Assembly (NCBI GenBank): GCA_963805975.1
Contig: CAWDVR010000001.1
Coordinates: 512,001-576,000, forward strand
Origin: an uncultured Acidobacteriota bacterium
GTDB lineage: Bacteria; Acidobacteriota; Thermoanaerobaculia; Multivoradales; SZUA-115
Length of the DNA stretch: 64,000 bases
Reading direction: 5' to 3'
Each line of letters starts with the position of its first letter. Position 1 is the stretch's first letter. The notes beneath the pieces are model-generated. The model made no database searches, had not been told where the DNA came from, and saw only the letters and a program-made list of their open reading frames with translations. The translations under genes and the position numbers were made by a program. Of the stretch, positions 21,948-40,688 are shown piece after piece.

Positions 21948-23828
21948 TCACCGGATGGGGCCGGGGACGGCCACCGCTTCTGCTTTGCGCGCCAGCACCT
22001 CGCGGATCTTCTGCGCCAACTGCTCGGCCGAGAAGGGCTTCTGCAAGAAGTCGACCTCCCCGGCCAGGATGCCGTGGCGCAGCACCACGTTGTCTGTGTA
22101 GCCGGAGACGAAGAGCACCGGCACCTCCGGCCACTCGCGGTGCAGGCGATCCCGGAGGTCGCGGCCGGAGAGGCCGGGCATCACCACGTCGGTCACCACC
22201 AGGTCGAACGGCCGCTCTCCTTCGCCGGCGCGCGCCAGGCGGAAGAGCGCGTCCTCGCCGTCGACGGCGGTGGTGACCTGGTAGCCCAGCTCGTGCAGCA
22301 CCTCCTTGATCGAGTGCCGGAGGTCGAGGTGGTCCTCGACCAGGAGCAGCGACTCGGTGCCGCGGGCCGCCGCCTGCTCGCGTACCGCCGCGGCCAGCTC
22401 CGGCCGTGCCTCGTGGCAGCGCGGCAGGTAGATCTTGAAGGTGGTGCCGCGGCCCGTTTCGCTGTAGACCCACAGGTGCCCGCCGGCCTGCTCGACGATG
22501 CCGTAGACGGTGGCGAGGCCGAGGCCGCTCGAGCCGCTGTCTCCCTTGGTGGTGAAGAAGGGCTCGAAGATCTTGTTGCGGATCGCCTGCGGGATGCCGG
22601 GCCCGTCGTCGGTCACGGTCAGCAGCACGAAGTCGCCGGCCGGGGGCAGGCCCTCGACCCGGTCCTCCCGCCTCTTGGTCACATTGCCGGTCTCGATCGT
22701 CACCTTGCCGCCGGTGGGCATGGCCTCGCGGGCGTTGACCAGCAGGTTGACGATCACCTGCTCGACCTGGGTGGGATCGACCCGCACCCGCCACAGGTCG
22801 AGCGACAGGCAGGTGGCGAGCTCGATGTCCTCGCCGATCAATTGCTGCATCATGCGCTCGAGGCCGCCCACGATCTCGTTGAGGTCCATCACCTGCGGCT
22901 GCACCGCCTGCCGGCGGCTGAACGCCAGCAGGCGCTTGATGAGGTCCGAGGCGCGGAAGCTGGTGGTGATGACCGCATCCATCTTCTCGGCCACCCGGCT
23001 GCCGGGCTCGGCCTTCATCTTCACCAGCTCGGCCTGGCCGGTGATCGCGGCCAGGTAGTTGTTGATGTCGTGGGCGATGCCCCCGGCCAGCCGGCCCACT
23101 GCTTCCATCTTCTGCGCCTGGAGCAGCCGCTCCTCGCTCTTGCGCAGGGCTTCCTCGGTCAGCCGCCGCCGCCGTTCCTTGCTCGCCAGGCCGAGAGCCG
23201 CCAGCAGGACCATCAGGCCCCAGCCCACCATGATGCCGTTGGCCAAGAGCCGCAAGCGCCGTTGCTGCGCGGCCAGATGATGGTGCAGCCCATCGGCCAG
23301 CTCCTGGGCCACGCCGGCGACCTCCAGGAAAGTGCGGTCGTACTCGCGGTCGACCGCCGAGCCGATGCCGACGCTCTCGCCCCGCACGTAGCCGTCCCGC
23401 CGGGCGCTGGTCAGGCGCGAGAACCCTTCGAGACGGCGTTCGAGATCCTGGGCCAGGGTGCGGAGCCGGGGATCGTCGAGCGGCGCGATGCGCGCTTCCT
23501 CGCCGAGCGAGCCGCCCGCGATCAGCATCCGGGCGCTGCCCACGGCGCGGCCGAACGAGGCGAGGACCCCGTCCATGTCCACCGCGTCGCCGGTCACGAA
23601 CTCCTCGATCCACAGGTGAGTGGTGGCGATCGAGGTCTGGATGTCGGAGACGATGCGCGCGCGGTCCGAGTTCTGTACCACCAGGCGCTCCTGCAGCCAG
23701 TTGCTGGTGAGGAGCAGGAGAATCGAGACCAGGCCCAGACCCAGCACGGCGAGCGGTGTCCAGTAGCCGCTCTCCGCGGCGCGCCGCAGCTCGGCCACCG
23801 GCTCGAGCGGCCCGCCGTGGTCGCTCAC
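21948..23828 (-). CDS. Membrane-bound hybrid sensor histidine kinase (HisKA-HATPase-REC)
   Basis: Two TM helices around a periplasmic region; QKMEAVGRLAGGIAHDINN, NLLVNAREA, FEPFFTTK, GLGLATVYGIV; C-terminal receiver TDVVMP..QKPF. Confidence 0.92.
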   Translation of the reverse strand: MSDHGGPLEPVAELRRAAESGYWTPLAVLGLGLVSILLLLTSNWLQERLVVQNSDRARIVSDIQTSIATTHLWIEEFVTGDAVDMDGVLASFGRAVGSARMLIAGGSLGEEARIAPLDDPRLRTLAQDLERRLEGFSRLTSARRDGYVRGESVGIGSAVDREYDRTFLEVAGVAQELADGLHHHLAAQQRRLRLLANGIMVGWGLMVLLAALGLASKERRRRLTEEALRKSEERLLQAQKMEAVGRLAGGIAHDINNYLAAITGQAELVKMKAEPGSRVAEKMDAVITTSFRASDLIKRLLAFSRRQAVQPQVMDLNEIVGGLERMMQQLIGEDIELATCLSLDLWRVRVDPTQVEQVIVNLLVNAREAMPTGGKVTIETGNVTKRREDRVEGLPPAGDFVLLTVTDDGPGIPQAIRNKIFEPFFTTKGDSGSSGLGLATVYGIVEQAGGHLWVYSETGRGTTFKIYLPRCHEARPELAAAVREQAAARGTESLLLVEDHLDLRHSIKEVLHELGYQVTTAVDGEDALFRLARAGEGERPFDLVVTDVVMPGLSGRDLRDRLHREWPEVPVLFVSGYTDNVVLRHGILAGEVDFLQKPFSAEQLAQKIREVLARKAEAVAVPGPIR

Positions 23829-24277: not shown

Positions 24278-26104
24278 GTGAACGCGCGCGTCCTACTGCG
24301 GCTCCTGGTGCTGCTGGCCCTGGCCGCCTCGGGCTACCTCGTGCTCCGAGGGCTCGTCGGTGGGAGGAGAGAAGCGCCGCCGGTGGTGGCCAGGCTGGAG
24401 CCCGAGGCGTATGGCGAGGTGCTGTCCGCGGCGCGGGCGCGCCTCGAGAGCGGCGGCGGCCCGGCGACGGATCGGCCCCGTCTCGCCGACCGATCGCCGG
24501 CCGGCGATCGGCTGGTGGCCGTGAGCCTGTCGCGGCCGGCGGCGCCGGCGTGGGTCGCCTGGGGCCGTGGGCCGGACCTCGAGGCCGCCCTGACCCGGGC
24601 CGTCACCGACCTCGCACGGCGGAGCCATCCGGCGGCGCGGTCGGCGGGGCGATTGAAGATCGACGTCCTCGTGCGGCTCGATCCCGAGCGGACCTTCGAC
24701 GAGCAGGGCCGGGCGGACATCGAGCTCGGCCTGGACGGGCTCTGGTTGCCTGAAGCCGGCCTTTGGCTGCTGCCCGAGGAGATCTCGAGCCGGCGCCTGG
24801 TGCTGCCGGACGGCGACCTCCAGAGCGGCCGGCTGCGGCGCTACCTGGCGGAGGCTTCACCACCCTCGGGCAGGGTGATGGCCGATCCCGACGCCAACCC
24901 CGGCCGCGCCGGGATGCCGTACGCCACGGCCCGCTTCCTCTCGCTCGCCGAGGTCGAAGGGGGCGGGGTGATCGAGCTCTATCGTGGCAACGCGCTCGCA
25001 CCCGAGGTGGGGCCGGTGGCCCTGCTCGCCGCGGCCCGCGCCGGCGGTGAGTACCTGCTGCGCCATCAGCGCGCCGACGGTTCCTTCGGCTACAGCTATG
25101 AGCCCTGGGACGACGACCATGCGCGGGCCGACAACCTGCTGCGCCAGGCCGGCACCTGCTATTCACTCTTCGAGCTCTACGCTGCGACCGCCGACCGGCG
25201 GTTCCTCGAGGCCGGAGAGCGGGGGGTGGCGTGGCTCCGTACCTCCCTGCGCGCGCCCCGGCCCGAGGACGCGGCGCGAGGCGCGGACTTCGATGCCGTG
25301 GTGTCGCCGGGCGAGGAGGCCAAGCTCGGCGGAGCCGCGCTCCTGATGCTCGCCCTGCTCGAGCGCATCGAAGCCACGGGCGACCGCTCCACGCTGCCGG
25401 AGGTCCGGCGCCTGGGCCGCTTCCTCCTCTTCCAGCAGGACGGCGACGGGCATTTTCGGTCCAAGTACTTCTACGGCAAGCCGGACCCGGTGCCCTTCGA
25501 GTCCGTCTACTACCCGGGCGAGGCGATCCTCGCTCTCACCCGCCTCCACGCGCTGGACGGCAACGGCCCCTGGCTCGCCGCGGCGCGGAAGGCCGCGGAC
25601 TGGCTGATCCTGGTGCGCGACCGAGGCAAGGCGGTCGCCGCTCTGCCGCACGATCACTGGCTCCTGATCGGCCTCAACGAGCTCCACCCGCAGGCTCCCG
25701 AGGCGTATTACCTCGAGCACGCGCGTCGGGTGGGGGAGGCGATCCTCGGCGCCGAGCGTCGGCAGTCACCCCACCCGGACTGGATCGGCAGCTTCTACGA
25801 CCCGCCGCGCTCGACCCCGGCCGCGACCCGCTCCGAGGGCCTGGTGGCGCTCTACCACCTGGCCTCGCGCAACGGCCTCGATCCCGCGCCCTTTCGCGAG
25901 GCCCTGCTGCGCTTGGCGGCCTTCGAGCGCCGCTGCCAGATCGCCCCGGAGAGCGCCCTCTACCTGCCCCGACCCGACCGCGCTCTGGGCGGCTTCCGCC
26001 GCGGCCTCACCGACTGGGAAGTGCGCATCGACTACGTGCAGCACAACCTGTCGGCGTTCCTGGGGCTGAGGGGGATCCTGGCCCTCACGCCCGCCGGCTC
26101 TTGA
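24278..26104 (+). CDS. Membrane-anchored hypothetical protein with predicted (alpha/alpha) barrel
   Basis: N-terminal TM helix; Q..DG.F repeats (HQRADGSF, QQDGDGHF), NLLRQAGT, YYPGEA, C-terminal RIDYVQH; GTG start chosen. Confidence 0.6.
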   Translation: MNARVLLRLLVLLALAASGYLVLRGLVGGRREAPPVVARLEPEAYGEVLSAARARLESGGGPATDRPRLADRSPAGDRLVAVSLSRPAAPAWVAWGRGPDLEAALTRAVTDLARRSHPAARSAGRLKIDVLVRLDPERTFDEQGRADIELGLDGLWLPEAGLWLLPEEISSRRLVLPDGDLQSGRLRRYLAEASPPSGRVMADPDANPGRAGMPYATARFLSLAEVEGGGVIELYRGNALAPEVGPVALLAAARAGGEYLLRHQRADGSFGYSYEPWDDDHARADNLLRQAGTCYSLFELYAATADRRFLEAGERGVAWLRTSLRAPRPEDAARGADFDAVVSPGEEAKLGGAALLMLALLERIEATGDRSTLPEVRRLGRFLLFQQDGDGHFRSKYFYGKPDPVPFESVYYPGEAILALTRLHALDGNGPWLAAARKAADWLILVRDRGKAVAALPHDHWLLIGLNELHPQAPEAYYLEHARRVGEAILGAERRQSPHPDWIGSFYDPPRSTPAATRSEGLVALYHLASRNGLDPAPFREALLRLAAFERRCQIAPESALYLPRPDRALGGFRRGLTDWEVRIDYVQHNLSAFLGLRGILALTPAGS

Positions 26105-26762
26105 GCACGTAGCCCACGCCTTTGAGGGTGTGGAGCAGGGCGCGCTCCTGCTGGCCGTCGATCTTGCGGCGCAGGCGGTGGACGGTGACGTCGACGACGT
26201 TGCTGAAGGAGTCGAAGGAGTCGTCCCATACGTGCTCGACGAGCTCGGCGCGGGAGACCACCTGGTCCACGCGCGAGAGCAGGAACTCGAGGATGGCGAA
26301 CTCCTTGGGCCGCAGCTCGAGCGCTTGGCCGGCCACCTGCACGGTCCGTTGGGCCCGGTCCATCTCGAGATCACCGGCCGAGAGCCGCGGTTGGAGGGGC
26401 TGCTGGCGGCGCCGCAGGAGGCTGCGGACGCGCGCCAGGAGCTCGCCGAACTGGAACGGCTTGGTGAGGTAGTCGTCGGCGCCCGAGTCGAGGCCGCCGA
26501 TCCGCTCGTCGAGGCCTGAGTGGCCGGTGAGCATCAGCACGGGCATGGCGTGGCCCTGCCGGCGCCAGGCGCGCAGCAGCTCGATGCCCGAGGGTGGCGG
26601 GATGCTCCAGTCGAGGATCACTAGGTCGTAGGGATTGATCTCGACCAGCTCGGCGGCCTCGGCACCGGTCGCCGCCGAGTCCACGGCATACGCCTCGGCG
26701 CGCAGCCGCTCGACCAGAGCTTCAGCCAGAACTTCTTCGTCCTCGACCACGAGGAGTCTCAT
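26085..26762 (-). CDS. OmpR-family response regulator (CusR/CzcR-like), divergent from the multicopper oxidase
   Basis: Receiver + GADDYLTKPF + winged helix (KEFAILEFL, SNVVDVTVHRLRRKID, GVGY). Confidence 0.92.
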   Translation of the reverse strand: MRLLVVEDEEVLAEALVERLRAEAYAVDSAATGAEAAELVEINPYDLVILDWSIPPPSGIELLRAWRRQGHAMPVLMLTGHSGLDERIGGLDSGADDYLTKPFQFGELLARVRSLLRRRQQPLQPRLSAGDLEMDRAQRTVQVAGQALELRPKEFAILEFLLSRVDQVVSRAELVEHVWDDSFDSFSNVVDVTVHRLRRKIDGQQERALLHTLKGVGYVLKSRRA

Positions 26763-26789: not shown

Positions 26790-26850
26790 TGATAGCTATC
26801 CTATCACTTCTTCGGAGTCTCCAGAACACCCAGGTTTAACGCTCTTGTAA
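26790..26850. promoter_or_regulatory. Candidate operators in the divergent RR/mnxG promoter
   Basis: AT-rich intergenic DNA with inverted repeat TGATAG-N5-CTATCA (26790-26806) and TTTAA/TGTAA at 11-bp spacing (26835, 26846). Confidence 0.4.
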
Positions 26851-26910
26851 GGATGGTTGTCCGAAACTGCCGCCATCCTCCGTCCCCTGAACCAAACTGG
26901 AGAACGACCG

Positions 26911-29900
26911 ATGAGAACCTTGCGACTCTCCCTCCGCCTCGCCGCCTTCGCCGCGGCGCTGGCGCTGCCCCTGACGGGGCAGGAATCGGACCCGATCCCG
27001 GACGCCGAACCGCCGCCGGTGTTCGAAGAGCCGGAAGCTGCCGCCGGCTGCGAGCGGCACGTCTACGCCAACGTCGTGGCGCTCGACCAGGTCTTCTACC
27101 TGAACCGGCTGGGCGCGTTCGAGCCCCAGGGGCAGGTGTACGCCCTGGAGCACGACGTCGTCCACCCGAGCTACAACCAGAACACTTGCACCGGCCCGGC
27201 GCCCTCGGCTGGCAACGCCGTGCTGCGCCGGGACAAACGGCCCCGGCCCCTGGTGCTGCGCATGAACGTGGGCGACTGCCTGCACATCCAGTTCAAGAAC
27301 TGGCTGGCGACCTCGCCTCGGGACGAGGAGCAGCCGCACACGCGCTCCGCCTCGATCCACGTGGTCGGCATGCAGTACGGCACCTCGATCGCGGACGGCG
27401 GCACCAATGTCGGCCTGAACCCGGCGGGCGGCGTGGTCAGCCCGGGCGGCACGGTCAATTACACGCTCTATGGCCAGGCCCCAGGCACCTTCCTGCTCTA
27501 CAACGGCGCGGTGATGGTCTCCGCCGGCGGCGAGGGCGGCACCATCTCGACCGGCCTCTTCGGTGCGGTGAACGTCGAGCCCAGGGGCGCCGAGTGGTAT
27601 CGCAGCCAGGTCACGGCGCACGACCTCCTCCAGGCCAACCTGCCGGTGCCGGACATCAACCCGTTCCCCAAGATCAATTACAACGCGACCTTCTCCGCCG
27701 GCAATGCGCCCTACTGCGGCGCCAACGGCAAGCCGATCCTCGCCATGCTGGGCGCCGGCAACACCACGGTCTACTCGGACCTGACGGCGATCATCACCGG
27801 ACCGAACCGTGGCCCCTTCGCCGCCGGCACCTTCCAGGAGCTCGGGGACATGTACCCCGAGCGCACCAAGCCCTACCGCGAGTTCACCATCATCTTCCAC
27901 GACGAGATCAACGCCGTGCAGGCCTTCCCGCACTTCAACGACGAGGTGCTGGCCCACACGCTGCACAGCGCGCGCGACGCCTTCGCCATCAACTACGGCA
28001 CCGGCGGCGCCGGCGCCGAGGTGCTGGCGAACCGGCTCAAGGTGGGTCCGATGCACCAGTGTGAAGAGTGCCTGTACGAGGAGTTCTTCCTCACCTCGTG
28101 GGCGGTGGGCGACCCGGCGATGGTGGTGGACAAGCCCGCGAACAACAACCTGGTGCGGCAGACGAGCCCCGGCGGCCCCACCATCCAGTGCACCACCCAG
28201 GACATCAAGGACGGCCGCAACTGCTATCCGGCCCAGGCCGGCCCTCAGGCGACCCGCGTCTTCTACCCGGACGACCCCTCGAACGTCTATCACTCCTACC
28301 TGAACGACCACGTCAAGTTCCGCAACCTGCACGCCGGGATCGAGGACCATCACATCTTCCACCTGCACGCCCACCAGTGGGTGCATTCCCCGGAGAGCGA
28401 CAAGTCCGCCTATCACGACAGCCAGTCGATCGGTCAGGGAGTGGGCTGGACCTACGACATCGCCTACAACGGCAGCGGCAACCGCAACCGCACGGTGGGC
28501 GACTCGATCTTCCACTGCCACTTCTACCCGCACTTCGCCCAGGGCATGTGGAGCCTGTGGCGGGTCCACGACGTGCTCGAGACCGGCACCCGGCTCACCA
28601 GCGAGGGCAAGCCCGTCCATTTCACCGACGGGAGCGGCAACGTCTTCGTGACCAACACCCGCGCGCTGCCGGACGGCGAGATCAAGACCGGCACGCCGAT
28701 CCCCGCCGTGGTGCCGATCCCCGGCCAACCGATGGCGCCGCTGCCGGCGCCGGTGCAACTGGTGAACGGCGACATCGGGCCCGCGGTGCCGGCCTCGAAC
28801 CCCGGCTACCCGTTCTTCGTCGCCGGCTCGGCCGGCCGCCGGCCGCCCCACCCGCCGCTCGACACGGCCTGGGACGGCGGCCTGCCGCGGCACGTGGTGA
28901 AGGAGGGCACCGTCGGCCTCGAGGAGCACAACCGACTGAGCTTCGACAAGCACCTCGACCAGATCAAGCCCCGCTGGGTGCCGGAGACCGGCACTCCGAC
29001 CGAGATCCTGGCCATGGACTTCCACTCGGCCGGCTATCACCTGACCGCCACTCCCGAGGGAGCAATGGGCCAGGCCTTCGGCGTCAACCACCGGCCGCCG
29101 GTGGCCGGCGCACCCTTCGCCGACCCCTGCGAGAAGCCGAATTCGTTCTTCGACCCCACGCCGCAGGAGCCGGTGAACTCCAATCGCACGCCGGACCGCA
29201 CCTACAAGGCGGCCAACATCCAGATGGACATGGTGTTCAACAAGGAGGGCTGGCACTACCCGCAGCAGCGCCTGCTGGCGCTGTGGGAGGACGTGATCCC
29301 CACCCTCTACGCCGAACGGGCGCCCGAGCCGCTCTTCATCCGCGCCAACGACGGCGAGTGCATCGAGTACCACCACACCAACCTGGTGCCGAAGACCTAC
29401 GAGGTCGACGACTACGAGGTCCGCACCCCGACCGACGTCATCGGCCAGCACATCCACCTGGTGAAGTTCGACGTCACCTCCTCGGACGGCAGCGGCAACG
29501 GCTTCAACTACGAGGACGGAGCCTTCAGCCCCGAAGAGGTGCAGAGCCGCATCCACGCCATCCGCACCGCCAACGGCTGCGGGCCGGGCGACTTCGATGC
29601 CTACCCCTACACTCAGCCCACCTGCCCGCACCCGCAGGAGCACCCGTTCTTCAAGCCGGAGGGCATCAACGCCAACTGTGACCAGGACTACCCGGACGAC
29701 TGGCTGGGCGCGCAGATCAACATCCAGCGCTGGTGGGCCGACCCGGCCCGCGACCAGAACGGCGTCAGCCGCACGCTGCGCACCGTGTTCACGCACGACC
29801 ATTTCGGCCCCTCGACCCACCAGCAGGTGGGCCTCTACGCCGGCCTGATCATCGAGCCCGCGGGCAGCCGCTGGTACGAGAACGAAGGCGTGGGCCAGCT

Positions 29901-32436
29901 CGGGATCGGCCGCGACGACGGCGGCCCCACGAGCTGGTCGGCGCGTATCGACCCGCCCACGGGCGACGACTTCCGCGAGTTCGCCGTCGAGTTCGCGGAC
30001 TTCCAGCACGCCTACTGGCCGGAGGGCCTGTTCCCGCCGCCCGGCGCCGGCGAGCTGCAGATCACCTGCCCCAACCCCCAGCGCCTGAAGGGCTATCGCG
30101 ACCACGAGGCCTCGATCAACCCGCCGGCGAGAGAAGAGGTGCCGCCGCCGGCCCTCTACCAGAAGATCGACCAGTGCCCGCTCCTCGAGTGCGACCCGGA
30201 TGGCCCCTACCCGGACGTCCTGATCGTCGGCGACAACCTCAAGGCTTCCTGCCCCGAGGCGTTCTCCGCCGCCGACCCCGGTTACGGCGCGGTCAACTAC
30301 CGCACCGAGCCGGTGGCGCTCCGCGTCCGCGACCCCAACACCAACGACCAGGCCGGCGGCATCCCGGGCGACCTGTCCTACGCCTACGTGACCCTCAACA
30401 ACCGCGCCGATACGCTGCTCAACGGCACCTCGAGCCCCTGGGTGCCCTACCCGCCGCTCACCAACGGCCTCTACGACGGCGACCCCTTCACCCCGTTGCT
30501 TCGGGCCTACGAGGCGGACCCGATCAAGGTGCGCGTGCTGGTCGGCGCGCACGAGGAGGAGCACAACTTCAACTTCAGCGGCGTCAAGTGGCTGCAGGAG
30601 CCCGACCATCCCAGCTCCGGCTGGCGCGGCTCGCAGATGGCCGGCATCTCCGAGTGGTTCGACTTCGACGTCAAGCGTGTTCCCCTGCTCGACGGCACCA
30701 CGCGCAAGGCCGCGGACTTCCTCTACCGGCCGAGCGCCAGCAACGACTTCCAGTGGGACGGCCTGTGGGGCCTGATGCGTCTCTACCGCGGCACGAACGC
30801 GACCTCCCACCTGCCGGTCCTGGGCAGCAACCCGGACGGCGCGGGCCCCGATGCAGAAGAGGAGGCGGACATCATCAGCCTGCGCCCGGTCCACGCGCCG
30901 GAGCTCTCGGAAGGCGCGCTCACCGGCCTCTCCCTGAGCAGCGACAAGACCTCGCCCTACACCCCGGACCCGCCCAGCCAGCTCCCGGTCTTCTGCCCCC
31001 CGCACCAGGCTCCGGTGACCTTCGACATCGTGGCCCTCGCGTCCCAGGCCGCGCTGCCGCAGAACACGCTCTTCTACAACAGCCGCGGCACCTCGGTGAG
31101 CTACCTCGCGCCTTCGGGCGGGGTGTGCTCGGAGGTCAGCCTGCCCAGCCCGACACCGCCGCCGCACGCCGGTCCGCTGCACGACCCGACGGCGATCTTC
31201 TTCGCTCACAAGGCGGACGTGAACACAACGACTCGCAGGCTCAAGCCGGGGGTCAACCCGGAGCCGCTCATCCTGCGCGCCAACGCCGGTGACTGCATCC
31301 AGGTGACGTTGACCAACTGGCTGCCCACCAACTACATGGACGCCGACGGCTTCAGCGGCGTGCACATGATCGTCGAGGACTTCAACGCCAACGACGTCGA
31401 CCCGTCGCTCGCCGTGGGCCTGCACCCGGCGCTGGTGACCTACGACCCGCTCTCCGGCGACGGCATGAACGTCGGCATCAACCCGTTCGTCACCGGGCTG
31501 GCCCAGACTGTGACCCCCAACCAGTCGATCACCTACCACTGGTACGCCGGTCACATCTCCAAGACCAGCACCGGGCGGCTCCTCCTGCGTCCGGTGGAGT
31601 ACGGCGCGATCCCGCTCACCTCCTCCGACCCCATCAAGCACTCGATGCGGGGCGCGGTCGGTGCGCTGATCATCGAGCCGATGGACTCGACCTACATCCT
31701 CGACCAGGTCAAGGAGCACAACATCCCGAGCATTCCCTGGCTCAAGACCTACGCCTCGGCGACCATCGTGACCCCCGAGATCAAGTTCCGCGAGTTCGTC
31801 AACGTCTTCCAGGACGACATCAACCTGTTCTACACCGACGGTCTGAGGATCGGTCTGCCGCCTACCTCCTACCCGCCGGTGGGCAACCTCTCCGTGGTGC
31901 AGGACTCGACCGAGTCCGGCCACCGGGCCTTCAACTACCGCACCGAGCCGGTGTGGTTCCGGCACGGCTTCCAGCCGGAGACCCCGCCCGAGCGCACCCG
32001 CCAGTTCACCGACATGCACCAGGTGTTCCTCGACAACTACGTCTCCGCCCGGCCCGAGACCCCGATCTGGGAAGCGGCGCCCGGCGACTCGATCCGTTTC
32101 CGCGTCGTTCACCCGGCCGGCAACACCCAGAACCAGACCTTCGAGGTGCAGGGGCACGTCTGGTACGAGGAGCCGTTCCTGACCTCCGCGATCCCGTCGC
32201 AGGGCATCGGCTACAGCACGGTCTCGAACTGGGAAGGCGTACACAACGGCATCGGCCCCGGCGGGCACTTGCAGTGCCTGCTGCCCAGCGCCGGCGGTGC
32301 CTACCAGATCCAGGGCGAGTACATGTACAAGAGCTACGTGCCCTGGGCGCTCGACGACGGCCTCTGGGGCCTGCTGCAGGTCGACCCGACGCTGCCCCCG
32401 ACCGTGGGCTCTTCGTCGATCGACACCGGCAAGTAG
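26911..32436 (+). CDS. mnxG: Giant multicopper oxidase, MnxG-type putative Mn(II) oxidase
   Basis: About 1840 aa with signal peptide; Cu motifs HHIFHLHAH (28348), HCHFYPHFAQGM (28513), HIH (29449), HDH..H (29794), HEEEH (30550); repeated PL.LR.N.GDC cupredoxin starts; GGAGA before ATG 26911. Confidence 0.8.
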   Translation: MRTLRLSLRLAAFAAALALPLTGQESDPIPDAEPPPVFEEPEAAAGCERHVYANVVALDQVFYLNRLGAFEPQGQVYALEHDVVHPSYNQNTCTGPAPSAGNAVLRRDKRPRPLVLRMNVGDCLHIQFKNWLATSPRDEEQPHTRSASIHVVGMQYGTSIADGGTNVGLNPAGGVVSPGGTVNYTLYGQAPGTFLLYNGAVMVSAGGEGGTISTGLFGAVNVEPRGAEWYRSQVTAHDLLQANLPVPDINPFPKINYNATFSAGNAPYCGANGKPILAMLGAGNTTVYSDLTAIITGPNRGPFAAGTFQELGDMYPERTKPYREFTIIFHDEINAVQAFPHFNDEVLAHTLHSARDAFAINYGTGGAGAEVLANRLKVGPMHQCEECLYEEFFLTSWAVGDPAMVVDKPANNNLVRQTSPGGPTIQCTTQDIKDGRNCYPAQAGPQATRVFYPDDPSNVYHSYLNDHVKFRNLHAGIEDHHIFHLHAHQWVHSPESDKSAYHDSQSIGQGVGWTYDIAYNGSGNRNRTVGDSIFHCHFYPHFAQGMWSLWRVHDVLETGTRLTSEGKPVHFTDGSGNVFVTNTRALPDGEIKTGTPIPAVVPIPGQPMAPLPAPVQLVNGDIGPAVPASNPGYPFFVAGSAGRRPPHPPLDTAWDGGLPRHVVKEGTVGLEEHNRLSFDKHLDQIKPRWVPETGTPTEILAMDFHSAGYHLTATPEGAMGQAFGVNHRPPVAGAPFADPCEKPNSFFDPTPQEPVNSNRTPDRTYKAANIQMDMVFNKEGWHYPQQRLLALWEDVIPTLYAERAPEPLFIRANDGECIEYHHTNLVPKTYEVDDYEVRTPTDVIGQHIHLVKFDVTSSDGSGNGFNYEDGAFSPEEVQSRIHAIRTANGCGPGDFDAYPYTQPTCPHPQEHPFFKPEGINANCDQDYPDDWLGAQINIQRWWADPARDQNGVSRTLRTVFTHDHFGPSTHQQVGLYAGLIIEPAGSRWYENEGVGQLGIGRDDGGPTSWSARIDPPTGDDFREFAVEFADFQHAYWPEGLFPPPGAGELQITCPNPQRLKGYRDHEASINPPAREEVPPPALYQKIDQCPLLECDPDGPYPDVLIVGDNLKASCPEAFSAADPGYGAVNYRTEPVALRVRDPNTNDQAGGIPGDLSYAYVTLNNRADTLLNGTSSPWVPYPPLTNGLYDGDPFTPLLRAYEADPIKVRVLVGAHEEEHNFNFSGVKWLQEPDHPSSGWRGSQMAGISEWFDFDVKRVPLLDGTTRKAADFLYRPSASNDFQWDGLWGLMRLYRGTNATSHLPVLGSNPDGAGPDAEEEADIISLRPVHAPELSEGALTGLSLSSDKTSPYTPDPPSQLPVFCPPHQAPVTFDIVALASQAALPQNTLFYNSRGTSVSYLAPSGGVCSEVSLPSPTPPPHAGPLHDPTAIFFAHKADVNTTTRRLKPGVNPEPLILRANAGDCIQVTLTNWLPTNYMDADGFSGVHMIVEDFNANDVDPSLAVGLHPALVTYDPLSGDGMNVGINPFVTGLAQTVTPNQSITYHWYAGHISKTSTGRLLLRPVEYGAIPLTSSDPIKHSMRGAVGALIIEPMDSTYILDQVKEHNIPSIPWLKTYASATIVTPEIKFREFVNVFQDDINLFYTDGLRIGLPPTSYPPVGNLSVVQDSTESGHRAFNYRTEPVWFRHGFQPETPPERTRQFTDMHQVFLDNYVSARPETPIWEAAPGDSIRFRVVHPAGNTQNQTFEVQGHVWYEEPFLTSAIPSQGIGYSTVSNWEGVHNGIGPGGHLQCLLPSAGGAYQIQGEYMYKSYVPWALDDGLWGLLQVDPTLPPTVGSSSIDTGK

Positions 32437-32454
32437 AAGACAGCGAGATCGACC

Positions 32455-34512
32455 ATGAAACCTACTCTTATCTCTTGGACGTCCCTTGCGGCCCGCCGGC
32501 TGGGTGCCGCCTCGCTCCTCGGAGCGCTGGCGGCGGCCCCGCAGGCGGTTGCCACCTCCCCGGCCGAGGCGACGGCCCCGGCCGGGGGCCTTTCTTCTTC
32601 GACTACCGCTTCTTCGACCCCAGGCAGCGTCCCTTCCGGCCACTACCAGGTGGAGCACTCGGGGCTTCGGGTCGACCTCACCCTCGACTCGCTCGCCGAG
32701 CCGCGCCCCGCCGGCCGGTTCGAGGAGCGCGATCCACTGTCCGTCTCCATCCGGGTCACGGACGCGGCGACCGGCGCCCCGATGGCCGGGCTCTCGCCGG
32801 CCGCCTGGCTGGACCTGATCCCCTCCGCGGCCGATGACGGCCCGCAAGCGTGCAAGCTCAAGCTGCAGAACTTCCTGAGCGGCGCGCTGCTCTCGGCGCC
32901 GGCGGTCTCCCTCAACTCTTTCTACGTGGTGGCGCTCAACTCCGAGCCCTCGCTCACCGTCATCGACCCGCTCTCCGGCTTCGGCGGCTCGAAGCTCCTG
33001 GCGCTGGTGGACCTCTCCTCGCCCGGCGAGGACTGGGTGCTCACCCGCGACGGCGCCTGGCTGTTCGTCTCCCTGCCGGCCTCGGGCCGGGTGGCGGTGG
33101 TCGACACCGCGCGCTTCAAGCTGGTGACCGAGATCGAGACCGGCGGCCGCCCGTCCCGCCTCCTCCTGCAACCGGACGAGGGCTACCTGTGGGTGGCGGA
33201 TGGCTCCACGGCTGCGGGCTCGGGCGTGACGGTGATCGACACCGCACGCCGCACCGTGGTGGGCCGTATCGCCACCGGCGCCGGCCCGCACGACCTCGCC
33301 GTGGCGGGCGACGGGCGGCACGTGTTCGTGACCAACGAGACGGCGGGCACGCTCTCCGTGCTCGAGGTCGATTCGCTGTCCCGCCGCGCCGAGATCGCCA
33401 CCGGGCCACGGCCCGTGGCGCTCGCCTACTCGGCCCTCTCCGGCGCCGTCTACGTGTCGGACGCCGTGGCCGGTACGGTCACCGTGGTCGACGCCGCCCG
33501 CCACCAGGTGGTGGCGCAGATCGAGGCGGAGCCCGGCCTCGGCCAGGTCCGCTTCGCGCCGGACGGCCGCCTGGCCTTCGTGGTCAACCCCGGCGCCGAC
33601 AAGGTCCATATCCTCGACGGCGCCAGCCATCGCCTGGTGCAGACCGCGGAGGTCGAGGACGAGCCGTACCAGGTGAGCTTCACCGACACCCTGGCCTACA
33701 TTCGCCACCGGGCGAGCGAGACGGTGATGATGGTCCCCCTCGCGGCAGTGGGGGAGCCGGGCCGGACAGTGCCCGTGGCGAGCTTCCCGGGCGGCCAGAA
33801 GGCTCCCGGCAGCACGGTTCCCGCGAGCCTCGCTGCCGGCATCGTGCCCGCCGACAAGCCCACGGCCGTGCTGGTCGGCAACCCGCTGGACCGCACCATC
33901 TACTACTACATGGAGGGTTCCGCGGCGCCGATGGGGAGCTTCCAGAACTACGGCCGCGAGCCCCGCGCCGTGCTGGCGGTGGACCGCAGCCTCCGGCAGT
34001 CCGCGGCCGGAGTGTACGAGGCGAAGGCGCGGCTCGCCGGCGCCGGCGTCTACGACCTGGCGCTGTTCGTGGACTCGCCGCGCATCTCCCACTGCTTCCG
34101 CTTCGAGGTCGAGGCCAATCCCGAGCTCGAGCGCCAGCGCCTGGCGGCCCAGGGAGCGCGGGTCGATTTCCTGACCCTGGCGGACGAGGTGGCGGTGGGC
34201 GAACCGGTCGCGGTCCGCTTCCGGTTGAGCGACCCGGTGAGCGGCCTGCCGATGGCGGGCTTGCGGGACGTGGTGGCGCGCGCCTTCCTCGTTCCCGGCA
34301 TCTGGCAGGGACGGCTCCCCGCCGTCGAGATCGCCGCGGGTCTGTACCAGGTGGAGCTGACGCCGGCCGCGGCCGGCTCCTACGTCGTGCAGCTCGAAGC
34401 GCCGTCGGCCCGGCTCACCGTCAACCGCTCGCCGAGCCTGAATTTGCAGGTCGTCGAGCGCGCCCCCGCACAGGCCGCAAAGTCCAACTCCGAGCCGAGG
34501 AGAACGCCATGA
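32455..34512 (+). CDS. YncE/cytochrome cd1-like beta-propeller protein with C-terminal Ig-like (YtkA/FixH-like) domain
   Basis: Signal peptide; repeated YVTN-type blades (VAVVDT, IATGAGPHDLAV..DGRHVFVTN, FAPDGRLAFVVN). Confidence 0.75.
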   Translation: MKPTLISWTSLAARRLGAASLLGALAAAPQAVATSPAEATAPAGGLSSSTTASSTPGSVPSGHYQVEHSGLRVDLTLDSLAEPRPAGRFEERDPLSVSIRVTDAATGAPMAGLSPAAWLDLIPSAADDGPQACKLKLQNFLSGALLSAPAVSLNSFYVVALNSEPSLTVIDPLSGFGGSKLLALVDLSSPGEDWVLTRDGAWLFVSLPASGRVAVVDTARFKLVTEIETGGRPSRLLLQPDEGYLWVADGSTAAGSGVTVIDTARRTVVGRIATGAGPHDLAVAGDGRHVFVTNETAGTLSVLEVDSLSRRAEIATGPRPVALAYSALSGAVYVSDAVAGTVTVVDAARHQVVAQIEAEPGLGQVRFAPDGRLAFVVNPGADKVHILDGASHRLVQTAEVEDEPYQVSFTDTLAYIRHRASETVMMVPLAAVGEPGRTVPVASFPGGQKAPGSTVPASLAAGIVPADKPTAVLVGNPLDRTIYYYMEGSAAPMGSFQNYGREPRAVLAVDRSLRQSAAGVYEAKARLAGAGVYDLALFVDSPRISHCFRFEVEANPELERQRLAAQGARVDFLTLADEVAVGEPVAVRFRLSDPVSGLPMAGLRDVVARAFLVPGIWQGRLPAVEIAAGLYQVELTPAAAGSYVVQLEAPSARLTVNRSPSLNLQVVERAPAQAAKSNSEPRRTP

Positions 34513-35219
34513 CCTTGCGACGCTCGACCAAGAAGCTTGAAGCTCTCCTGGCTCTCTCGCTGGCGCTCGGAGCAGCCTCCGTGGGCTTCCGGCCCGGGCA
34601 AGCCCACGCTGCGGAGCAGGCGGCCGGAGCCCCCTGCCACGCTGAGCACGGCACGGCGACGGCGCCCTCCGAGCCGCGCTCCGAGGTGGTGCCGGAGGTA
34701 GTGACCGCCCGGCTCGAGATCCCGGACCTCGAGCTGACCGACCAGGACGGCAAACCGGTGCGTTTCTATCGCGACCTGGTGGCGGGCCGCCTGGTCGCCA
34801 TGAACTTCATCTTCACCACCTGCACCACCATCTGCCCGCCTATGGGCGCCAACTTCGCCAAGCTCGGACGAGTCCTCGCCCGGCGCCAGGGAGCGCCGGT
34901 GGCGCTGGTCTCGGTGTCGATCGACCCGGCCACGGACACGCCGGCGCGGCTCAAGGCCTGGCGGGACAATCTGCTGGGTGCCGGTCCGGCATCGAGCCCG
35001 TGGACGCTCGTCACCGGCCCGAGACAGGAGATGACGGCCCTCCTGAAGGCGCTCAACGCCTTCAACGCGGACAAGGCACGCCACACGCCGTTCCTGCTCC
35101 TCGGCAACGAGGCCACCGGCGAGTGGCGGCGCGTCTACGGCTTGACGCCCCCTGCCGAGCTTGCCAAGCTGCTCGACGAGCTCGCCACCACCACCGTCGC
35201 CAAGGGAGTCGCACCATGA
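34509..35219 (+). CDS. SCO1/SenC family copper chaperone
   Basis: LTDQDG, FIFTTCTTICP (CxxxC), SVSIDPATDTP, conserved His; ATGA overlap with upstream gene. Confidence 0.88.
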   Translation: MTLRRSTKKLEALLALSLALGAASVGFRPGQAHAAEQAAGAPCHAEHGTATAPSEPRSEVVPEVVTARLEIPDLELTDQDGKPVRFYRDLVAGRLVAMNFIFTTCTTICPPMGANFAKLGRVLARRQGAPVALVSVSIDPATDTPARLKAWRDNLLGAGPASSPWTLVTGPRQEMTALLKALNAFNADKARHTPFLLLGNEATGEWRRVYGLTPPAELAKLLDELATTTVAKGVAP

Positions 35220-35803
35220 GCCCGCTCTCCTATCGCCCGGCACTCGCGGCTCTCGCCGTGGCCGCTCTGCTCCTCGGAACCGCCAGCCCTCGGGCTTGGG
35301 CCGCAGGCGGCACCGACACCGCCCGCAACTACTTCACCGACGTGGGCCTGGTCAACCAGGACGGCGAGGAGATGCGCTTCTACAGCGATCTGCTGCAGGG
35401 CAAGATGGTGGTCATCAGCTCGATCTTCACCACCTGCACCGGCGCCTGCCCGGTGACCTCCAAGAACATGCAGAAGATCCAGCAGTTCCTGGGCGACCGC
35501 CTGGGCAAAGACGTGGTGATGCTCTCGATCACCGTCGATCCGGCCACCGACACGCCGCCCAAGATGAAAGAGCTCGCAGAGCAGCTCGGCGCCAGGCCGG
35601 GCTGGTATTTCCTGACGGGCACGCCCGCCAACGTGGAGCTGGCGCTCGGCAAGCTGGGCTCCGCGGTCAGAGAGCCGGAGGACCACAACAACCTGATCTT
35701 CGTCGGCAACGAGCGCACCGGCCTGTGGAAGAAAGCCTTCGGCCTCGCCGCGAGCGAAGAGCTGCTCCCGATCGTGCAGTCGGTGCTGGAGGACGAAGGC
35801 TAG
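35216..35803 (+). CDS. SCO1/SenC family copper chaperone (second paralogue)
   Basis: LVNQDG, FTTCTGACP (CxxxC), SITVDPATDTP, W.FLTG, His; ATGA overlap. Confidence 0.88.
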   Translation: MSPLSYRPALAALAVAALLLGTASPRAWAAGGTDTARNYFTDVGLVNQDGEEMRFYSDLLQGKMVVISSIFTTCTGACPVTSKNMQKIQQFLGDRLGKDVVMLSITVDPATDTPPKMKELAEQLGARPGWYFLTGTPANVELALGKLGSAVREPEDHNNLIFVGNERTGLWKKAFGLAASEELLPIVQSVLEDEG

Positions 35804-35825
35804 GAAGTCGCGGCATCCACCCGGA

Positions 35826-38365
<2,540 letters not shown>

Positions 38366-38369
<4 letters not shown>

Positions 38370-38959
38370 GGCTGCATCTCCTCCGCCAGCCAGGCCTTGG
38401 CCCGCATCCAGAGCCGCTGCGCGGTGCGCAGCGAGAGACCGAGGGCCGTGGCCGTCTCCTCTTCGCTGTAGCCGCCGAAGACCCGGCACTCGACCACCCG
38501 GACCAGGCGGGTGTCCAACTCGGATAAACGGAAAAGCGCCTGCTCGACCGCCAGCACCTGCTCGATCTCGGCGTCGATCGCCGGCGGCTCGTCGGCGGGA
38601 GGCGCCGCCGCCTGGTCGCCGCCCCGCTTGCTCGCGCCGCGGCGGCGGGCGTAGTCGACCAGGATCTGGCGCATCGCCCTGGCGCTCACGGCGAAGAAAT
38701 GGCCGCGATCGGCATAGGCGCCGGCGTGGTCGGCCAGCTTCAGGTAGGCCTCGTGGACCAGGGCGGTGGTCTCGAGGGTATGACCGGGCCGGATGCGGCC
38801 CAGCTGGCCATGGGCGATGCGGCGGAGATCGGCGTACAAGAGCGGCATCAGGCGGTCGAAAGCGGCGCGATCTCCCTCGGCCGCGAGGCGGAGGAGCTCT
38901 GCGATCGCGCTGCGATCGAGCGAATCGGCGGTCGTGGGGGCGGTGGGATCCGTGGACAT
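38366..38959 (-). CDS. ECF sigma factor, ECF43/TIGR02999 type
   Basis: LYADLRRIAH, TLETTALVHEAYLKL, AMRQILVDYARRR..KRGG, sigma4 HTH; AGGAG before ATG 38959; coupled to STK gene. Confidence 0.9.
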
Positions 38960-39065
38960 TTCGGCTCCTTCGGGCGAGCTGTGAGCTCGTCGCGGCGCGG
39001 ATGCTACCTGTGGGGCGTCGCCTGCGCGCGAATCGCGCACGGCCTACAATGCCCGGCGAGGAAGA

Positions 39066-40688
39066 ATGCCCGCGGAGCGCACCCTGATCCGAGACTGCGA
39101 ATACCCTCTTCCGGGAGGTCGGCCGCGCTCTCCACGCGGGGCGCTAGTGAGCGTCTCGTGCGCCGTGCTCGGCCTTCTTTCCCTGGGGTGGGTGGCGCTC
39201 GCCGCCGGCGCGCTCGCTCCCGCCGAGCAGCGCGGCAAGCAGATCTATCTCACCGGCAAGAGCCCCGGTGGGGGAGAGATCGTCGCCACCCTCGGCCAGG
39301 GCGGTGTCGAGGTGCCGGCCGGCCTGATGCCCTGCGGAAGCTGCCACGGGGCGGACGGCCGCGGGCGGCCCGAGGGCGGTGCGGTGCCGTCCGACATCAC
39401 CTGGCCCGCCCTCACGCGAAGCTACGGCGTGCGCCACGCGGACGGCCGCGAGCACCCGCCCTACGACGAGCGCTCCCTGGTCAAGGCCATCACCCTCGGT
39501 GTCGATCCGGCGGGCAACGCGCTCTCCGCCGTCATGCCCCGCTACCGGCTGTCGCAGCAAGACGCGGCCGACCTGGTAGCCTACCTCGGGCGCATCGCCG
39601 AGGACCGCGACCCCGGGATCGGCGAGGACGCTCTCACGCTCGGCCTCGTCCTGCCGCCCGAGCCCGGTGCCGCCGCCGGCGTCGAGACCGTGCTCGGCGC
39701 GCTGGCCGGCGAGCTCAACGGCAAGGGCGGCCTCTACGCGAGAAAGCTCCGCCTCGTGCGCGCAGCGCCCACGGGCACGCCGGCGGAGCGGGCCGCGGCG
39801 CTCGCGGCGTTCCTCGACCGCGAGCAGCCGTTCGCGCTGCTGGCGCCGTTCCTGGCCGGCGCCGAGCGCGAGATGGGAGCGGTGCTGGCCGAGCGCGGCA
39901 TTCCCGCGGTGGGCGCCCTGGCGGCCGAGCCCGTGCTCGAGACGCCGCTCAACCGCTCCGTGTTCTACCTCTACGGCGGCATCACTCACCAGACGCTGGC
40001 GCTGGTGGATCGCCTGGCGGCGCCGCCGGCCGGGCCCTGGGCGCTGGCGCTGCCCGCGGGCCGGGCCCGGGAGCTCGAAGGGCTGGCGGCGGCGGTGGAG
40101 CGGCGAGCGGCGGCCCGAGGCCTGGCGCCCGCGCGGCGGCTGGCGTATGCCGAGGCGAGCGAGGCCGTGGCCGGCGCGGCGGAGGCCGGAGCCAGGTCCG
40201 TGATCTTCCTCGGCGGTGCGGCGGAGGCCGCCGCGTTTCTCGACGAAGCCGCGGCACGCGGCTGGGAGGGCCGGTTTCTCGCCCCTGGCGGCGCGGCCGG
40301 GCCGACCGTGCTCGGGAGGGCGAGCGCTTTCCGCGGCAAGGTGACGCTCTCCTTCTCGACCCTGCCGTCCGACCTTCGGCCCGAGGCCCTCGCCGAGCTC
40401 GAGCGGCTGTCGGGAGGTGCCGAGGCGGCGCGCTCGGGCCGGCCGGCGCGCGCCTCGGCGCTCGCCGCCGCCCGGCTGCTGGTGGAGGCGCTGGCGGGCC
40501 TGGGCCGCGACCTGAGCCGCGAGGGCCTGGTGCAGGCGCTCGAAGGCGTCTATCGCTTCGAGACCGGGCTCACACCGCCGCTCAGCTTCGGCCCCAACTC
40601 CCGAGTCGGTGCCGCGGGCGCCTGGCTGGTGGAGGTCGAGCCGTCGTCCGGCGCGGTGCTGGGCGCGGAATGGCTCAGGCTGGAGTGA
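39066..40688 (+). CDS. c-type cytochrome fused to LivK-like periplasmic binding domain
   Basis: TM/signal segment, RGKQIY, CGSCH heme motif, MPRY axial Met candidate; LNGKGGLYARKL and LSFGPNSRVG typical of type I PBPs; true start may be GTG 39147. Confidence 0.78.
   Translation: MPAERTLIRDCEYPLPGGRPRSPRGALVSVSCAVLGLLSLGWVALAAGALAPAEQRGKQIYLTGKSPGGGEIVATLGQGGVEVPAGLMPCGSCHGADGRGRPEGGAVPSDITWPALTRSYGVRHADGREHPPYDERSLVKAITLGVDPAGNALSAVMPRYRLSQQDAADLVAYLGRIAEDRDPGIGEDALTLGLVLPPEPGAAAGVETVLGALAGELNGKGGLYARKLRLVRAAPTGTPAERAAALAAFLDREQPFALLAPFLAGAEREMGAVLAERGIPAVGALAAEPVLETPLNRSVFYLYGGITHQTLALVDRLAAPPAGPWALALPAGRARELEGLAAAVERRAAARGLAPARRLAYAEASEAVAGAAEAGARSVIFLGGAAEAAAFLDEAAARGWEGRFLAPGGAAGPTVLGRASAFRGKVTLSFSTLPSDLRPEALAELERLSGGAEAARSGRPARASALAAARLLVEALAGLGRDLSREGLVQALEGVYRFETGLTPPLSFGPNSRVGAAGAWLVEVEPSSGAVLGAEWLRLE

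Follow-up and report, generated by a model that had tools for sequence, protein, structure and literature searches.

The window analysed here is a stretch of 64,000 nucleotides (contig CAWDVR010000001.1, positions 512,001 to 576,000, forward strand) from the genome of an uncultured bacterium, assembly GCA_963805975.1 (5.36 Mb, 6 contigs, 96% complete). The genome belongs to Thermoanaerobaculia, within the phylum Acidobacteriota that a first-pass annotation, made from the letters and open reading frames (ORFs) alone, had thought probable. It carries a gene for a giant multicopper oxidase (MCO), followed in the same orientation by genes for a β-propeller protein, two SCO copper chaperones and, further on, a cytochrome c/periplasmic-binding-protein (PBP) fusion (Table 1), all of them present as that annotation had described. 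The propeller gene starts 18 nt after the oxidase ORF and matches the Pfam families YNCE, Cytochrom_D1 and Lactonase; the start of each SCO gene overlaps the preceding gene by ATGA, and each product has a CxxxC motif plus a His; the likely start of the fusion is a GTG at 39147. All five genes are intact, with G+C contents at third codon positions (GC3) of 0.87 to 0.95. An antisense ORF of 2418 aa (26836 through 34092) was discarded as a shadow frame (GC3 of 0.66 vs. 0.95 for the oxidase), and a scan for sigma-70 promoters and terminators returned nothing exceeding chance.

The oxidase ORF encodes 1841 aa and is free of internal stops. The permuted copper motifs noted at first pass for a protein of ~1840 aa are borne out, and the export is probable: HIFHLH (residues 481 through 486) and HCHFYPHFAQGM (535 through 546) precede HIH (847 through 849) and HDH (962 through 964), a C-D-A-B order, and the N terminus, judged by eye, resembles a Sec signal peptide and holds no twin-arginine motif. 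With ligand roles assigned from canonical MCO motifs, H481, C536, H541, and the axial M546 supply the type 1 (T1) copper site that defines an MCO, and H484, H486, H535, H537, H847, H849, H962, and H964 supply the type 2 and type 3 (T2/T3) coppers. Eleven of these 12 ligand columns are invariant across a 72-protein alignment, and the axial Met is kept in 71/72. Domains 4 and 6 have no Cys in their C and D motifs, which leaves the enzyme with one T1 site. An acidic motif, CxxC-x2-EE (C384/C387/E390/E391), and other carboxylates are common to the window protein and to the Pseudomonas and Bacillus types.

Pfam assigns the oxidase to no family, Cu-oxidase models included; its sole NCBIfam match is NF041487 (MnxG) at 1311.5 bits vs. 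a cut-off of 3100, a model on which four named Pseudomonas/Azotobacter MnxG proteins reach 3685 to 3920 bits. A sequence search of the Protein Data Bank (PDB; E ≤ 0.01) returned only Bacillus MnxG (9BXA, E = 8e-92), in six aligned stretches, five of them significant. An AlphaFold model of residues 41 through 1130 (mean predicted local distance difference test score, pLDDT, 84.3; predicted template-modeling score, pTM, 0.90) again retrieved 9BXA first in Foldseek (E = 6.9e-36; template-modeling score, TM, 0.50), the next matches being two-domain laccases at 1.6e-13. Full-length identity is 38% over 2007 columns to P0237, a named P. putida MnxG (identity as the GB-1 protein not verified), and the clusters named MCO/MnxG in the ESM Atlas, where recognition falls below its threshold, serve as a lead only. 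The three-domain CueO/CopA/CotA class was not matched, with no NCBIfam CueO or CopA hit, no PDB CueO or CotA hit, and a motif order other than A-B-C-D. The oxidase is thus a member of the broad MnxG-type family of giant MCOs (six cupredoxin domains, C-D-A-B) that lies outside the curated equivalog; the MnxG-type label given at first pass holds for the family and not for the equivalog.

Table 1. Features of the oxidase locus (positions in the window)
Feature	Position	Strand	Evidence
Divergent OmpR-family response regulator, candidate operon regulator	26085..26762	-	PF00072 + PF00486
Putative response-regulator box: conserved promoter element of two related hexamers spaced 11 nt apart	26835..26851	+	Block shared by 5 aligned upstream regions
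MnxG-type six-domain multicopper oxidase, 1841 aa	26911..32436	+	NF041487, 9BXA, ligand columns, AlphaFold/Foldseek
YVTN/YncE-type beta-propeller protein, 685 aa, orthologue of second mnxG-operon gene	32455..34512	+	Pfam, reciprocal best match
SCO1/SenC copper chaperone 1 (C105-x3-C109, H192), ATGA-coupled	34509..35219	+	PF02630, reciprocal best match
SCO1/SenC copper chaperone 2 (C74-x3-C78, H157), ATGA-coupled	35216..35803	+	PF02630, reciprocal best match
Inserted Ser/Thr kinase with TPR repeats, longest ORF (true start probably further in)	35826..38489	-	Not ancestral to operon
Inserted ECF sigma factor, paired with kinase (likely start 38959)	38366..39040	-	TIGR02999 above cut-off
Mono-haem cytochrome c/periplasmic-binding-protein fusion, orthologue of fifth mnxG-operon gene	39066..40688	+	CGSCH, PF00034, PF13458

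Two trees were built with FastTree (72 rows and 1327 columns, after a secondary ORF of 1013 aa was dropped) and IQ-TREE (26 rows, 938 columns), both with a Bacillus mycoides protein, an end-to-end match of 9BXA, as the root and both without McoA, CotA, CueO, and CopA. The phylogenetic comparison with MnxG that had been proposed at first pass gave the same answer in each: the oxidase falls inside a Pseudomonas-type clade, apart from the Bacillus type, with support of 100 (65/72 and 22/26 rows, respectively). An approximately unbiased (AU) test rejects joining it to the Bacillus type (p = 1e-38), and core identity over the 938 columns is ~52% to Pseudomonas MnxG and 39% to a Bacillus-type orthologue. 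Inside the clade its neighbours are proteins of same-family genomes, in a mostly acidobacterial branch; in the FastTree topology long branches meet near the root and branch order within the clade is weakly resolved. This placement therefore brackets the oxidase between two branches that hold experimentally shown Mn oxidases, as reported in the available text of PMC13689576.

Other giant oxidases turned up in the same survey. A third, very divergent group (L116-L120; G028:C121, G019:C24, G005:C49, G032:C637, and G022:C229) comprises proteins of ~1750 to 1850 aa in the same order, which keep all 12 copper ligands and lie on a long branch of their own at ~34% core identity to the window oxidase and with no propeller, SCO, or cytochrome match within the 8 to 11 kb surveyed per locus. 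Longer MnxG-type paralogues of 2140 to 2500 aa (L121-L124; G012:C99, G020:C58, G040:C27, and G153:C181) have two SCO genes upstream of the oxidase in three loci. One close homologue within the acidobacterial branch (P0026) bears the source label "Deltaproteobacteria bacterium"; source names here are unreliable as taxonomy.

In P. putida GB-1 the operon runs mnxG, YVTN propeller, SCO, SCO, cytochrome c/ABC substrate-binding protein, SurA (PMC11409713, Table 4, in the part available). Synteny with that region, also proposed as a check at first pass, was examined through the orthologues at L062, a metagenome contig locus whose oxidase nests among Pseudomonas MnxG. The first five L062 genes find the window genes as their genome-wide best matches (37, 37, 38, 40, and 43% identity in the best segment); the propeller (37% over 590 aa), both SCO proteins (SCO1 with SCO1, SCO2 with SCO2), and the cytochrome c/PBP fusion are reciprocal best matches, and the GB-1 order is kept. 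A second Pseudomonas-like locus, L056, has mnxG and none of these neighbours. Among 16 comparison loci picked for carrying the cluster, 15 have the full oxidase-propeller-SCO-SCO-cytochrome set, including all five same-family genomes examined; no cytochrome gene was found in the sixteenth (Indioceanicola). Judged on its sequence, the locus represents the Pseudomonas-type mnxG operon in an acidobacterial version with four of five helper genes. The Pseudomonas-like neighbourhood proposed at first pass stands for those four orthologues; SurA and the sigma-54 promoter are missing, and the operon is split. The propeller was seen only beside MnxG-type oxidases (2/401 Pseudomonadota genomes; one plasmid record); it was also considered as an IoxC-like partner of smaller MCOs, of which there was no case among the 401 Pseudomonadota genomes and plasmid records.

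Two of the loci surveyed are worth recording in their own right. At L028/L029 (G017:C5:709000-720000) two tandem MnxG-type oxidase genes precede one propeller-SCO-SCO-cytochrome set, with a third copy on another contig. At L051 (NZ_CP030127.1) a megaplasmid of Indioceanicola profundi, an alphaproteobacterium in culture, bears an MnxG-type oxidase-propeller-SCO-SCO array that is unannotated; the oxidase is 43% identical to that of the window.

The operon is interrupted in the window. Between SCO2 and the cytochrome fusion lie 3.3 kb that hold an antisense Ser/Thr kinase gene with tetratricopeptide repeats (TPR) and a gene for an extracytoplasmic function (ECF) sigma factor. The genome holds 12 paralogues of this ECF factor, and 11 of these adjoin a kinase paralogue; because of these pairs we regard the two genes as an expanded module unrelated to the operon; TIGR02999-type ECF sigma and Ser/Thr kinase-TPR pairs have expanded genome-wide, occurring at 35826 through 39040 of the window and at 11 other sites. 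Contigs of a related strain from soil run X2 (records 14 and 15) span both junctions, which rules out an assembly artefact. The distance from SCO2 to the cytochrome gene is 3344 nt here vs. 11 to 224 nt in the 15 comparison loci having both genes. The split is a new feature, the cytochrome gene being adjacent in the five relatives examined, and the insertion, a later event, probably put that gene into a separate transcription unit.

Such an event could have impaired the operon in this lineage, uncoupling the cytochrome/PBP gene and leaving the oxidase inactive or confined to copper handling. The antisense spacing would fit, as would the sole same-genus genome searched (93% complete, 210 contigs), which has no match to oxidase or fusion, and the loss of Mn oxidation in cytochrome c maturation mutants of Pseudomonas (PMC13689576, available text). 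Yet the five genes retain high GC3 and every ligand, the same split arrangement is bridged in a related strain from an independent soil run, and gene order is shuffled in other genomes as well (L032, L121-L123, L127, L130, and L134), so we consider impairment very unlikely.

A regulator 60 to 73% identical to the divergent OmpR-type protein lies upstream of the oxidase, in the same divergent orientation, in L015, L017, L020, L021, and L031. The promoter element is the best-conserved block among the five aligned upstream regions and has an 11-nt period; it may resemble OmpR-family boxes. These sequence features suggest that the operon is likely controlled by the divergent regulator rather than by sigma-54/MnxR.

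Candidate machinery for export lies elsewhere in the genome, on contig C5 (L138:4549-14658), where a cluster resembling a type II secretion system (T2SS) has GspF, GspE, PilN, secretin, and pilin-like genes, the secretin falling under the GspD cut-off. Its ATPase is the best match in the genome (54%) of the ATPase that adjoins Pseudomonas mnxG. The secretin also carries TPR and cohesin-like domains. Two further MCOs are encoded: a Tat-exported protein of 463 aa of the two-domain type (contig C2, L136:3000-4391, minus strand) and one of 777 aa with a mannan-binding lectin (MVL) domain (contig C3, L137:3031-5364, minus strand). A MopA-type peroxidase query of the genome gave 0 matches, and its controls were equally blank, making the result uninformative.

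Two genes for heme-copper oxidase subunit I are also present in the genome, as are genes for cytochrome c assembly, and the haem protein accompanies the oxidase in 6/7 family genomes. These data would suit a scheme, discussed for pseudomonads in section 19 of PMC13689576 (available in part), in which Mn(II) oxidation is coupled to respiration, the cytochrome c/PBP protein passing electrons to the heme-copper oxidases and yielding maintenance energy. The trinuclear centre of an MCO reduces O2 directly, however, and the complete centre found here would bypass the respiratory chain; moreover, the cytochrome gene is separated in the window, and the Indioceanicola locus yielded no copy of it. We rate coupling to respiration as the least probable of the alternatives.

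Because an intact giant oxidase gene stands with four of the five helper genes of the Pseudomonas operon, the genome likely oxidises manganese, and Mn(II) oxidation appears the most likely function of the oxidase, ahead of each rival, with moderate confidence. Several observations weigh against it. The oxidase scores under the NF041487 equivalog cut-off, and the AU test rejects uniting it with three gammaproteobacterial MnxG proteins (p-AU = 5e-7). Several paralogous oxidase subfamilies coexist in single genomes of the class and hence hint at functional divergence. The L062 SurA protein (PF13624) had no tblastn match (E 1e-4) in the host genome, complete to 96%; a sigma-54 motif was found upstream of the oxidase in 0/4 family loci vs. 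3/3 Pseudomonas-like loci (with no genome-wide search for MnxS/MnxR orthologues made); and the T2SS-like cluster lies apart from the oxidase locus. The comparison itself leans on genetics: MnxG and McoA each yield Mn oxides in GB-1 by genetic evidence, and, according to the available text of PMC13689576, only the Bacillus enzyme has been characterised biochemically. Finally, SCO and gsp genes flank an iodide-oxidising MCO too (PMC9415286, in part), and the substrate therefore cannot be read from the helper genes.

An exported copper oxidase with this maturation module might act on another physiological substrate (phenolics or humic matter, Fe(II), iodide), with Mn oxidation incidental or absent. 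Identity of just ~52% to Pseudomonas MnxG, the separate acidobacterial branch, and the presence of as many as three divergent groups of paralogues in single genomes of the class would be in keeping with this, as would IoxA, which has SCO and gsp neighbours and oxidises iodide and phenolics (PMC9415286, available text). Against it, both bracketing branches hold Mn oxidases, the CxxC-x2-EE motif and carboxylates, whatever their role, are shared among all three types, the propeller keeps to MnxG-type oxidases, and IoxA is a protein of 62 kDa vs. about 200 kDa for the window oxidase. Another substrate is the most serious competitor to Mn(II) oxidation, though an unlikely one.

If the enzyme oxidises Mn(II), it would cross the inner membrane via Sec and receive copper in the periplasm from the two SCO proteins, the propeller likely acting as partner or folding aid. 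The unlinked T2SS-like system may then carry it out of the cell, where the exported oxidase would likely act on Mn(II). Single electrons from Mn(II), and then from Mn(III), would enter at the T1 copper and pass along the Cys-His bridge to the trinuclear centre; there O2 would be reduced to water, with Mn(III/IV) oxide left behind. The haem protein would be a probable redox or sensing accessory, and control would likely fall to the divergent OmpR-type regulator and not to sigma-54/MnxR.

The system is not special to this genome. Many of the top homologues of the oxidase bear the name Thermoanaerobaculia. Matches occur in 19/40 relatives (6/7 in the family, 0/1 in the genus, the latter being the incomplete genome noted above). 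At NF041487 E ≤ 1e-30, in partial samples whose members are kin and not independent, they occur in 24/200 genomes of the class, one of the 24 (G202) being unpublished. The class matches are concentrated, with 18/48 genomes in one family and none in four families of 19 to 30 genomes each, and matching genomes often carry two to four paralogues from three subfamilies. Elsewhere the oxidase is rare: 6/300 genomes across the phylum (~3 of about 271, or ~1%, once the class is set aside), and 2/400 in Pseudomonadota, the phylum of a Hyphomonadaceae record (0.5% of those sampled). None of the matching genomes in the class, phylum, or ~400 Pseudomonadota samples passes the NF041487 cut-off. At E ≤ 1e-20, 4352 public proteins match among 7992 scored, and related DNA was seen in three soil runs and one cave run. 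Recent foreign acquisition is unsupported, because GC is flat, the genes on either side keep their synteny within the family, and the proteins closest in the tree come from same-family genomes. The oxidase and its operon thus represent a widespread known system, common in this family and class.

Mn oxides of biological origin govern how trace metals are bound and how resistant organic matter is broken down, and most of their known producers are Pseudomonas or Bacillus, with a few Proteobacteria besides. Should the present branch oxidise Mn, a common class of uncultured Acidobacteriota would be added to these producers. It is conceivable, though we would lean against it, that several Thermoanaerobaculia families form an unrecognised main reservoir of MnxG-type Mn oxidases, on a branch of their own, under OmpR-type and not sigma-54 control and invisible to Pfam and the NCBIfam cut-off, and that they could be important uncultured makers of Mn oxide in soils and caves. 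Surveys relying on Pfam Cu-oxidase models or on that cut-off would miss the acidobacterial branch. A single locus adds little further to a known system; the enrichment across the class is the part worth following.

The available literature touches this lineage at few points. In the parts accessible, PMC13689576 does not mention Acidobacteria, and PMC13439051 reports one Acidobacteriota metagenome-assembled genome (MAG) with MnxG only. The idea of an unrecognised Mn-oxide producer in a lineage not known for that activity survives as Mn oxidation predicted from sequence, and loses its novelty: the organism is unexceptional and an acidobacterial mnxG is in print. A Thermoanaerobaculia mnxG might seem already published in PMC9224936; in its available text, MAG HKs85 carries moxA instead. 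The 16 rows of Table S7 in PMC10367259 (seen in part) hold no Acidobacteriota mnxG, which appears there in other phyla only, and the available text of PMC8218464, PMC10386581, PMC11252502, PMC12672754, PMC9040806, and PMC12482716 has nothing on this lineage, though the supplement of the last may list acidobacterial mnxG MAGs. Our search, whose coverage largely excluded subscription papers, found no Mn-oxidation assay on any acidobacterium, nor any description of the operon for Thermoanaerobaculia.

Other genes flank the locus. A gene at 23756 through 26104 (+) has a weak terpene-cyclase-like (α/α barrel) match and is conserved at 55% upstream of the regulator in family genomes G002, G003, and G006. 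Convergent with the cytochrome/PBP gene and overlapping its end is a membrane-protein gene (40675 through 42393, minus strand) with a weak GT87 glycosyltransferase match, which adjoins the cytochrome/PBP gene in G003 and G006 too. Beyond it lie a secreted DUF11 protein with an IPTL-CTERM sorting tail (43227 through 44768, plus strand) and two ORFs that by eye resemble an ImuA/ImuB mutagenesis pair (45905 through 48601, minus strand).

Set beside known systems, the oxidase shares its four-copper chemistry with CueO, CopA, CotA, MoxA, and McoA; it lacks CueO, CopA, and CotA matches in the searches described above, and McoA and MoxA sequences were not compared directly. Like the iodide oxidase IOX (IoxA-F) of Iodidimonas sp. 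Q-1, compared by the description in PMC9415286 (available in part), it is a probably exported MCO with SCO1/SenC neighbours, IOX having gsp genes nearby; unlike IoxA, it is a protein of some 200 kDa. It shares the permuted ligand order of Bacillus sp. PL-12 MnxG (9BXA, from the Mnx complex with MnxE3F3) and matches it along all six domains, but is ~600 aa longer, has no upstream room for co-oriented mnxE/F (a 149-nt gap to the divergent gene, with no genome-wide mnxE/F search made), and would leave a diderm cell by export, where the Bacillus enzyme is placed in an exosporium. Compared with the P. putida GB-1 operon, the window locus has no SurA gene or sigma-54 site and a divergent OmpR-type regulator instead, T2SS-like genes that are unlinked, an ECF/kinase insertion before the cytochrome gene, and an oxidase that scores below the equivalog cut-off in a separate acidobacterial branch. 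With P. putida MnxG (PputGB1_2447, 1944 aa, NF041487, in GB-1; compared here through P0237) the oxidase nonetheless shares full-length homology and identical copper ligands in identical order, and the two operons share orthologous propeller, SCO, SCO, and cytochrome c/PBP genes in the same order (PMC11409713, Table 4, and PMC13689576, in the parts available).

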